Source: Octopus vulgaris (taxonomy: Eukaryota). Taken from it: 64,000 nucleotides of DNA. Position 1 is the first letter of the stretch; every line of letters starts with the position of its first letter. Positions 32,492 through 51,365 of this stretch are shown piece by piece. The notes below the pieces were generated by a model. That model was not told the origin of the DNA. It saw only the letters and a program-made list of their open reading frames with translations, and ran no database searches. The position numbers and the translations under genes were made by a program. Location of the stretch: contig OX597835.1 of NCBI GenBank assembly GCA_951406725.2, positions 3,038,001 through 3,102,000 on the forward strand. The letters run 5' to 3'.

Positions 32492-32734
32492 CAGCGGTTC
32501 TCAACCATTTTTAAAACCTTATGGACCTCTTTTATTCTTGTTTTACTTAGATGAACCCATATAGCCATTCGACTTTTAAAGAGATAGGAATTTTATTAAA
32601 AAATGTATCGTATGAAAAAAACAACAACTTTGTATATTGTGGTAATATAACTGATTTATTCTGCATAAATTTTAACAACAAAATCTTATATGGACCCTCC
32701 TAAGGGTCATGTGGGCCCCGGTTGAGAACCACTG
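32492..32734. mobile_element. hAT (Charlie/MER5-like) MITE
   Basis: TIRs CAGCGGTTCTCAACC / GGTTGAGAACCACTG; degenerate 8-bp flanks gtttagtt / gaatagag. Confidence 0.8.
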
Positions 32735-33004
32735 GAATAGAGAGAAAGGAAGAGGGTAATATAGAGAAACAGGGGTAGTGTTATTACACGTACTTGGGTA
32801 CGCAATGTGTAAATGAAAGCTACACTTGCACACATAATGACAGGACGGCGAGCCTGGCGGGGAATAATCTATTACATTTTTCTTTTTGAAAGTAAATTGG
32901 CATTTATTTTATTATTCATGTAACCAGCAAGAAATTTGATAAAAGTTAAATAATATCTATTGTATACATTTCCTGATATTTCTCTTTGGGTAAATATCAG
33001 GAAA

Positions 33005-33257
33005 CAATTGCAGCGTGGAAGGTGTTTGTAAGCCATTTAAGAAACACACAAAAGCCGTTCGATTCACTTCAACATTTAAATTTAATTTGTCAAAATATTT
33101 TCGTGGCAGAGATTTTTGTCAGTGAACAGGTCGCGGTCTTATAACGACGAAAATATTTTGACAAATTAAACTTAAATGGCTTACAAACACCTTCCACCTT
33201 TTTTTCGTTTCAGCACACGATCTCAGATCAAATCACTTGCTATGCAAGTACATCTCC
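33005..33257. mobile_element. 253-bp fold-back insertion carrying a hammerhead, flanked by a 15-bp direct repeat (probable TSD)
   Basis: gtaaatatcaggaaa at 32990-33004 and 33258-33272; internal inverted arms. Confidence 0.7.
33115..33165 (+). ncRNA. minimal type-I hammerhead ribozyme, G3:C8 core variant
   Basis: tttgtca-GTGAACA-g-gtcg(cggtcttataa)cgac-GAAA-atat-TT-tgacaaa; 7-bp stem I, palindromic stem III. Confidence 0.75.
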
Positions 33258-34150
33258 GTAAATATCAGGAAATACATATTATAAAGGGTAAGACACACAC
33301 ACACACACATACACACAAACACACACATACATACACACGCACACATGTGGTCTCGCTCGCTGTGGGGTGGTTATCTCCCCTGTCAGTGCATAGACATGTG
33401 TTTCTCTGCAGCTGTAAATGCTTTTAGCTCTTATTTCTAGCAAGGTAGCTGCTCCTCCAAACCGTCAGCCACAATTAGTGACAATCGAATTTTTCCTTTT
33501 TGGTTATAAATTGCGTATAGCCGTCTTTATTTTTATAATTTTCACATTACCATTTTGCTGAATCAGCCATTGATTCTTTTGGCAAATACTATATATAGTG
33601 ATAATTGGCTTTCAGTAATCACCACTGATGAGCATTAATTTTAAGCGAAACTTTTTATGACTGCAACAAGTCAGAGATAAAAGATAAAGAAACCACTCCG
33701 AAAGAAAAACACACAGCGAAATGGAAGAGCCTCTACAACGCCAGTGGTGCTGCTAGAAATAGTCGCTAAACCCTTCAAGAATAACCTACCATTTTAAAAA
33801 GAATGTAAGAGCGCATCGATAATATGGTGTTTCTTAAGTAAAGTCCGGTAAGGGTAAATTAGGGGCTTAACAACAAAGTAGCATCCAGACGGGGAGAAGG
33901 GTCCCCAGCACATTGATATGAATGAGTAGGGCTCTTACTGTTGACCGTCACGGCAATTTCACTATACCCTGCTTATTACTCTTGTGCGCGTGCGTGTGTG
34001 TGACTGTGCGCGCGTATGTGTTTGTATGTGTGTTTGTGTTAGTTCGAGTGCGTGAGTCTGTGAGTGTGCGCTTGTGTGTGTGTGTAATTGTGTGTATACG
34101 CACAAATGCATTTTATCTTTAAATGCGTGTATCATTATATGAATACATAC

Positions 34151-51113: not shown

Positions 51114-51172
<59 letters not shown>

Positions 51173-51288
51173 CGGAATGGTCATATTGCCAGTTTAGCCA
51201 ATAAAAACACACGCATTCCGAAATATAACAATATCTGTTTCAACACACGACTTCACATAAAAAAATCTTGCACAACAAATATTTAAAC

Positions 51289-51365
<77 letters not shown>

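Follow-up and report, generated by a model that had tools for sequence, protein, structure and literature searches.

Penelope-like elements (PLEs) and the small hammerhead ribozymes that they carry are the described systems closest to the locus treated here. The minimal hammerheads of PLEs cut weakly and as dimers (PMC4209133), and a natural U3:A8 core has been reported (PMC3088659, PMC4209133). For PAc/Poseidon, a PLE of the green anole, it has been shown in vitro that a tail lies between two internal reverse transcriptase (RT) start sites and that uncut RNA serves as template, and the mutation C3G/G8C rescues cutting of its hammerhead only partially (PMC11167929). This last result bears on a preliminary description of the octopus locus, made from its sequence, which had recognized a hammerhead with a swapped G3:C8 pair and had taken the swap to restore activity in model hammerheads; a restoration is on record, though a partial one.

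A fold-back insertion flanked by a target-site duplication

The window, a stretch of 64,000 nucleotides from Octopus vulgaris, contains a 253-bp insertion enclosed by an exact 15-bp direct repeat (32990-33004 and 33258-33272), for which the chance expectation is about 0.003 per 1.3 kb. Both this perfect repeat and the hairpin that takes in its left copy (32969-32981/32992-33004, 13 bp, z = -4.95) are as first described. The inverted arms of the insert had also been recorded, with limits that proved too short: they run over 33015-33041/33171-33197 (27 nt, 100%) and 33073-33104/33147-33178 (32 nt, 97%), a single inverted repeat that appears as two arm pairs because a 39-nt deletion splits the sense arm. 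The fold of the whole insert was computed at -86.8 kcal/mol (z = -9.8), a stability matched by 0 of 200 shuffles.

Judged by its sequence, the insert is made up of two degraded partial copies of a PLE 5' end, placed head to head. Positions in this 5' unit are counted from +1, where the 5' ends of family copies pile up, and the copy at locus L183 serves as the source for alignment.

32876-32994, plus strand: older dispersed AT-rich repeat that served as target
32990-33004: left copy of the target-site duplication, 15 bp
33005-33107, minus strand: partial copy of the PLE 5' unit in inverted orientation and without the tail, +149 to +44
33106-33261, plus strand: partial copy of the PLE 5' unit in sense orientation and with the tail, about +8 to +206 by alignment to L183
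33115-33165, plus strand: type I minimal hammerhead motif
33171-33178, plus strand: join left by the 39-nt deletion, at a source repeat of 8 nt
33176-33261, plus strand: remains of the PLE open reading frame (ORF; ATG at source +115), from its first ~30 codons
33202-33261, plus strand: PLE 'tail' between two inferred RT start sites (+147/150 and +205/207)
33258-33272: right copy of the target-site duplication

The inverted arm (33107-33002) corresponds to source +44..+149 with 95% identity to L183 and is likely a second cDNA. Besides the 39-nt deletion, the alignment of the sense arm to L183 reveals a second, small replacement, and the frame of its ORF remnant is disturbed near 33198-33201. 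The duplication shares letters with both ends of the element: the last 3 nt (AAA) of the left copy also match the element end at +147..+149, and the first 4 nt (GTAA) of the right copy are the element's 3' end as well, overlaps of 3-4 nt that are consistent with microhomology at both priming sites. Target-primed insertion, as the preliminary description had proposed, is supported, with a target-site duplication. What it had called a single integration event probably comprised two priming reactions.

A coding Penelope-like element as the source

The host genome is large (2.8 Gb) and rich in microsatellites. With the 253-bp insert as query it gave 863 candidates, 40 of which were scored. A pattern for the hammerhead core that left positions 3 and 8 free had 5,345 exact matches, in which inverted pairs can count twice, a pattern for the 3' tail had 2,605, and one for the very 5' end, preceded by a G, had 280; reversed control patterns had 0. 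To follow individual copies we studied 91 tail-anchored arms, drawn from the first 100 listed places and located without exception on one contig (C1). Twelve of these 91 extend upstream of the usual 5' end, and a search with that upstream DNA identified L183 (G000:C4:22952500-22962499), a 4.3-kb tandem in which two units, spaced 4,277 bp apart, enclose an ORF in the pLTR arrangement.

The first unit of L183 runs in frame from the ATG at +115 (L183:4334) into this long ORF, which is broken by one stop and one frameshift. Its motifs are YVDD, a CX3CX2C linker and, at the C terminus, YIGET. This coding sequence is also present beyond the tail in four copies, and of the 30 top hits to the upstream region 24 include pieces of the ORF that are 95-100% identical. 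The unit (~207 nt) thus divides into a ~114-nt leader, with the hammerhead at +16..+65, followed by ~30 codons. Because it runs in frame into the RT/GIY-YIG ORF in source copies, we take the window unit to be the 5' end of a PLE RNA. The preliminary description had presented the insert as a self-contained, ribozyme-only unit, which it is not: it derives from the RNA 5' end of a protein-coding PLE and includes the first ~30 codons.

A 777-aa piece of the source ORF had no Pfam match at E ≤ 0.1, but among its aligned relatives 6 of 34 match RVT_1 and 4 of 34 match GIY-YIG (PF01541) weakly. The best Foldseek match of a structural model of this piece (pLDDT 86) is telomerase TERT (E 4e-8, TM 0.33/0.41); a sequence search of the PDB gave 0 hits with the single protein and 2 weak RT hits with a profile. 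The source is an EN+ Penelope-like element with a telomerase-like RT, a GIY-YIG nuclease and a Zn-finger-like linker, the motif of which fits either the Neptune or the Nematis clade as these are given in PMC8557442. The best-scoring candidates of the source family include no fully intact ORF, the longest open frame being 1,025 aa in a 5'-truncated copy, and the N-terminal piece of the ORF is present in about 10 copies at ≥65% identity, against the 5,345 core matches.

This disproportion could suggest a stand-alone, non-autonomous ribozyme element, akin to a retrozyme or a SINE, with an RNA of its own that is mobilized in trans. Short units do far outnumber long copies, the 5' end is sharp, and animal retrozymes have been described as PLE derivatives (bioRxiv 10.64898/2026.07.22.740005). 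However, the unit, with its start codon, coincides with the 5' end of a coding element; the promoter-like sequence lies upstream of +1 and is missing from the short copies; and among the loci examined the whole unit occurs singly or head-to-head, never in head-to-tail arrays. Long copies with a promoter and a broken ORF could supply RNA in trans, which would make the short copies derivatives of a PLE and not ribozyme-only elements. We regard a stand-alone element as very improbable, and for the window locus as largely refuted.

Two other PLE families of the same genome stand beside the source. The dominant GIY-YIG PLE (781-aa frame; L092:4370-4420 and most of L067-L090) carries a U3:A8 hammerhead, and was rejected as source, having no DNA similarity and 21% protein identity. 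The sister family, at L256, encodes a protein that is 58% identical and has many intact frames of 1,310-1,312 aa.

A predicted hammerhead with a G3:C8 pair

The hammerhead layout of the preliminary description (core GTGAACA, 7-bp stem I, 4-bp stem II and palindrome) was reproduced on the plus strand, including its G3:C8 pair. Stem I pairs 33115-33121 with 33159-33165 over 7 bp; the core occupies 33122-33128, with G3 at 33122 and C8 at 33127; and an extra G, absent from the preliminary description, follows at 33129. Stem II (33130-33133/33145-33148) has 4 bp in the window and 5 bp in the family, having been weakened by a G>A change at 33144, where most family contigs have G. GAAA lies at 33149-33152 and the palindrome at 33150-33159, with palindromic stem III at 33152-33157 and a predicted cut at 33158/33159, after U17 (33158). 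The motif conforms to the core N3-UGA-N-N8-A with a Watson-Crick 3:8 pair, GAAA and UH, and its swap deviates from the CUGANGA consensus. Rfam returned nothing at gathering scores, and its 23 matches at E ≤ 10 include no hammerhead family. In 100 dinucleotide shuffles of the window we obtained 0 hits with a descriptor that asked for stem I ≥7, stem II ≥4 and any Watson-Crick pair at 3:8, and that had been set after the motif was seen; no hammerhead was found on the minus strand.

Pairing of the stem II register in the window copy was predicted with a probability of 0.13 in the sense arm alone and about 0 in the whole fold-back transcript, and in a transcript of the whole insert both stems I and II are predicted to pair at ~0. 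The fold-back is thus predicted to suppress the ribozyme, and with its stem II mismatch, 39-nt deletion and fold-back the window copy is most likely inert.

The swap is a property of the family. G3:C8 is present in 93 of the first 100 core matches listed, the others being seven single changes with 0 C3:G8, and in 74 of 75 arms; it is fixed in this Penelope family. Across 240 arms, shared subfamily variants occupy 3 of 8 loop II sites against 0 of 42 core and stem sites (Fisher p 0.003), although conservation of core and stems does not exceed that of the rest of the unit (0/42 vs 6/157 variant sites, p 0.35).

Formation of stems I and II was predicted with a probability of 0.69-1.0 for the 5' end of the source. 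Related elements have a hammerhead in the same position, with C3:G8 in the sister family (L256) and in metagenome loci L281 and L282, and with U3:A8 in L283 and the distant family of L092; the 3:8 pair of these relatives is always Watson-Crick, and of the six tabulated all have U17 and five the extra G. Stem II reads GTCGC/GCGAC where the sister family has GTCAC/GTGAC, a compensatory change. Among 11 metagenome relative loci we found hammerheads in three by script and in one by eye, none of them with G3:C8. The octopus genome by itself holds PLE families with all three 3:8 pairs, C:G, U:A and G:C. Since the 3:8 pair covaries naturally, with C3:G8 and U3:A8 at the same place, the G3:C8 hammerhead of the family is probably genuine. 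For the source motif, which lies in the 5' UTR of the element, we predict weak hammerhead cutting that depends on dimers, and the balance tips slightly towards the motif being really, if weakly, active.

Several of these relatives have peculiarities of their own. The C3:G8 hammerhead of L256 (45-110 and 4633-4700) has C9 instead of A9 as well as the compensatory stem II pair, the metagenome hammerhead at L281:4967-5020 combines U15.1:A16.1 with a palindromic stem III, and L092:4532-4954 is a fold-back inserted in TA that bears a canonical C3:G8 hammerhead with a long stem III.

Anatomy of insertions across the family

The 3' ends of family copies are sharply defined. All 91 tail arms end at +202..+209 and none continues into the ORF; an inverted partner is present for 46 of the 91, and 32 of these 46 partners end at +147..+150. 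Both clusters of ends lie inside the ORF. TA repeats adjoin 69 of the 91 tail arms. Two of the non-TA sites, which extend upstream, were left out of duplication scoring; of the 20 scored, 13 have duplications of 9-14 nt, one has 7 nt and six have none. The target duplications differ from site to site.

At the 5' side, 31 of 91 arms start at -10..+6, which produces the pile-up at +1. The letter before +1, C or T in the source, is G in 14 of 41 arms (5 of them ambiguous with the partner arm), and TATATAT occurs at about -30 of the unit. Because of this extra G at 5' junctions and the TATATAT, we infer a capped RNA start at +1, with the cap copied. The sequence before +1 (L183:4196-4222; also L141, L144, L146 and L151) can be read as a TATA-like box with an initiator or as a branch point with a splice acceptor; we considered +1 as a splice acceptor and rank it below a transcription start with a cap G because no shared upstream exon was seen.

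The same 5' ends bear on the hammerhead. Since 65 of 91 arms start upstream of the predicted cut site, most copies arose from uncut RNA, and the arms that start at the predicted cut site number 3 of 91 against about 1 expected (p 0.08), all three with microhomology. To judge by the 5' ends of these 91 arms, the genome holds no sign of hammerhead cutting. In one alternative, the fragment belongs to the same PLE but its G3:C8 hammerhead has lost catalysis and has spread as a relic, the copying of 5' ends either doing without cutting or suffering from it. Besides the arms from uncut RNA, this would agree with PMC11167929, where mutation of the anole hammerhead had no effect on insertion in vitro and none of the reads stopped at the cut site; rescue by G3:C8 is partial and the triplet ends in U17; and Naiad PLEs thrive without hammerheads (PMC8557442). 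Against a relic, passage from C3:G8 or U3:A8 to G3:C8 needs two pair-preserving changes, subfamilies retain both stems and every other core position, and relatives always retain a Watson-Crick 3:8 pair. We find a dead relic plausible without being probable.

How the two arms of a fold-back arise can be followed through their subfamilies. Among 43 arm pairs at 41 loci, five differ in loop II subfamily, two of the five by an indel plus substitutions, and 38 are concordant, where 39% would be so by chance. Fold-back insertions with arms of different subfamilies include L051, where both lie inside one 12-bp duplication, and L032. In at least 13 of 46 pairs, by hand count, the tail-less arm exceeds the tail arm at the 5' side by 20 nt or more; later deletion could explain some of these. 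The mixed-subfamily insertions suggest two RNA templates, and self-priming or shared templates may lie behind many insertion events.

Self-priming in particular would derive the inverted arm from the fold-back of one cDNA (or from an antisense template), with no second priming on RNA. It has been proposed for rotifer PLEs (PMC3846280) and would agree with the concordant pairs and with the window copy, whose inverted arm falls inside the span of its sense arm. It fits poorly with arms of different subfamily inside one duplication, as at L051, with tail-less arms that hold sequence missing from the tail arm, and with the sharp tail-less end at +147..+150, which matches an internal RT start site as in PMC11167929. 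As the origin of the inverted arm we judge it unlikely.

Two loci depart from the usual anatomy. At L052 (~1300-1600), the inversion junction holds the 5' half of the hammerhead as a tandem of four 64-bp repeats, which suggest repeated template jumps. At L098:1501-1956 (= L089:930-1385), a 5'-truncated unit has replaced, without duplication, about 58 bp of a ~400-bp TA-flanked MITE that in turn adjoins a GIY-YIG fragment.

Long inverted arms, and the presence of part of the unit within a TA-flanked TIR element at that one locus, might also call to mind a foldback DNA transposon or a MITE in which the hammerhead is a chance look-alike. The MITE family of that TIR element is without the unit piece, however, many copies of the unit show no inversion, the tail is asymmetric, the source encodes an RT, and the duplications vary (9-15 nt); we consider such an origin scarcely credible. 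A derivation of the unit from the MITE was rejected for the first of these reasons; symmetric terminal inverted repeats and a fixed duplication are also absent.

We consider it likely, taking the evidence as a whole, that the insert consists of degraded head-to-head PLE 5'-end copies made by two target-primed reverse transcriptions on uncut RNA, with the G3:C8 motif predicted to be a weak hammerhead. In the proposed sequence of events, a capped element RNA would start at +1, and the element protein, probably as a dimer, would nick both strands of AT-rich DNA 11-15 bp apart. One nick would prime at +205/207, keeping the tail, and the other at +147/150, without it, each aided by 3-4 nt of microhomology. 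Both cDNAs would then extend towards the cap and be joined at their 3' ends, which would yield both duplication and fold-back. The hammerhead of the source RNA may cut at +58/+59 at a low rate when two copies pair by their palindromic stem III, and cutting would trim tandem transcripts or remove the cap; the window copy would most likely take no part in this.

The target of the window insertion

A search with the older repeat that served as target gave 40 scored matches, one of them the repeat itself and 39 elsewhere, at 72-88% identity. The motif of the left hairpin arm is present in all five target-repeat paralogues shown, in one with a mismatch, and its inverted copy in none of these five. 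Since paralogues of the left flank hold the left arm without the inverted copy, the hairpin and the 15-mer both belong to the target. The preliminary description had asked whether the direct repeat comes from target or element; the answer is the target, its 11-nt core being present in 0 of 91 other family arms whose flanks were examined. Before insertion, the target appears as a short imperfect hairpin derived from the old repeat (32958-32981 and 33260-33283), and the element lies in its right arm.

An empty site of the window locus was not found among 15 joints shown (119 more lie beyond these) from the contigs of 4 runs. Contigs of two other organisms pass from the left flank 25-27 nt into the element, which is below our 31-nt bridging rule and gives a weak hint that the insertion is old. 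Elsewhere in the window, another very high-copy repeat lies just upstream (32632-32720, depth table), and at 51166-51291 the tail region of the sister PLE (L256) recurs as a small fold-back copy inserted in a TA repeat.

Comparison with known systems

The element type, fold-back, tail and duplication are already known, and G3:C8 is likely a natural variant. The literature searched, which includes PMC3088659, PMC3884650, PMC10085705 and PMC13725137 and covers main texts as distinct from supplements, yielded engineered G3:C8 only; priority is uncertain, and the supplementary hammerhead alignments of PMC4209133 and PMC8557442 may bear on it. A term look-up in the Octopus vulgaris repeat-annotation paper returned recently active Penelope families and no mention of ribozymes.

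The window copy itself is an ordinary dead insertion. If G3:C8 cuts, a laboratory rescue mutant becomes a natural high-copy ribozyme, standard searches miss a class of PLE hammerheads, PLEs 'lacking a hammerhead' may hide such cores, and the open question of the hammerhead's role in PLEs is affected. A bolder proposal, which we offer tentatively and rate just short of an even prospect, is that G3:C8 is a third working natural Watson-Crick hammerhead core, fixed in a Penelope family of recent success and thousands of copies and hidden from Rfam and from C3:G8/U3:A8 descriptors, and that mixed-subfamily fold-backs reflect a dimeric PLE protein copying two RNAs. The three 3:8 pairs in PLE families of one genome form a ready comparative set, and the thousands of short copies provide a genomic read-out of the PLE mechanism, including the two start sites, cap copying and the use of one or two templates.

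Insertions of the octopus family resemble those of Pen2a of Adineta (PMC3846280) and the general PLE scheme (PMC8557442). They share a ~200-bp unit with a TATA-like box 20-30 nt before an Inr-like start, the first ORF codons, an optional 3' tail on one arm, an adjacent inverted copy, 9-14-bp duplications, TA-repeat targets, a C-terminal GIY-YIG domain and a telomerase-like RT. The tail is about 58 nt in the octopus family against 30-40 there, and, unlike in those descriptions, most octopus copies are 5' ends without the ORF. Metazoan non-LTR retrozymes (bioRxiv 10.64898/2026.07.22.740005) are alike in their type I hammerhead, their relation to PLEs and their short non-coding copies; they form head-to-tail arrays, whereas the octopus copies are single or head-to-head and map to the 5' end of a coding element.

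The hammerhead has the features of minimal type I PLE hammerheads (PMC4209133, PMC3088659), namely an extra nucleotide between 9 and 10.1, G10.1-C11.1, a palindromic stem III suited to dimer activity and a position in the pLTR, but the natural covariant described there is U3:A8, and the octopus motif has a 7-bp stem I and a triplet that ends in U17. PAc/Poseidon of the green anole (PMC11167929) is alike in the two internal RT start sites that bracket the tail in the early ORF, in the uncut RNA template, in AT-rich targets and in the dimer model. Its hammerhead has C3:G8 and overlaps the start codon, whereas that of the octopus family has G3:C8 and lies 50 nt upstream of the ATG; G3:C8, an engineered double mutant in the anole element, occurs naturally in the octopus family.
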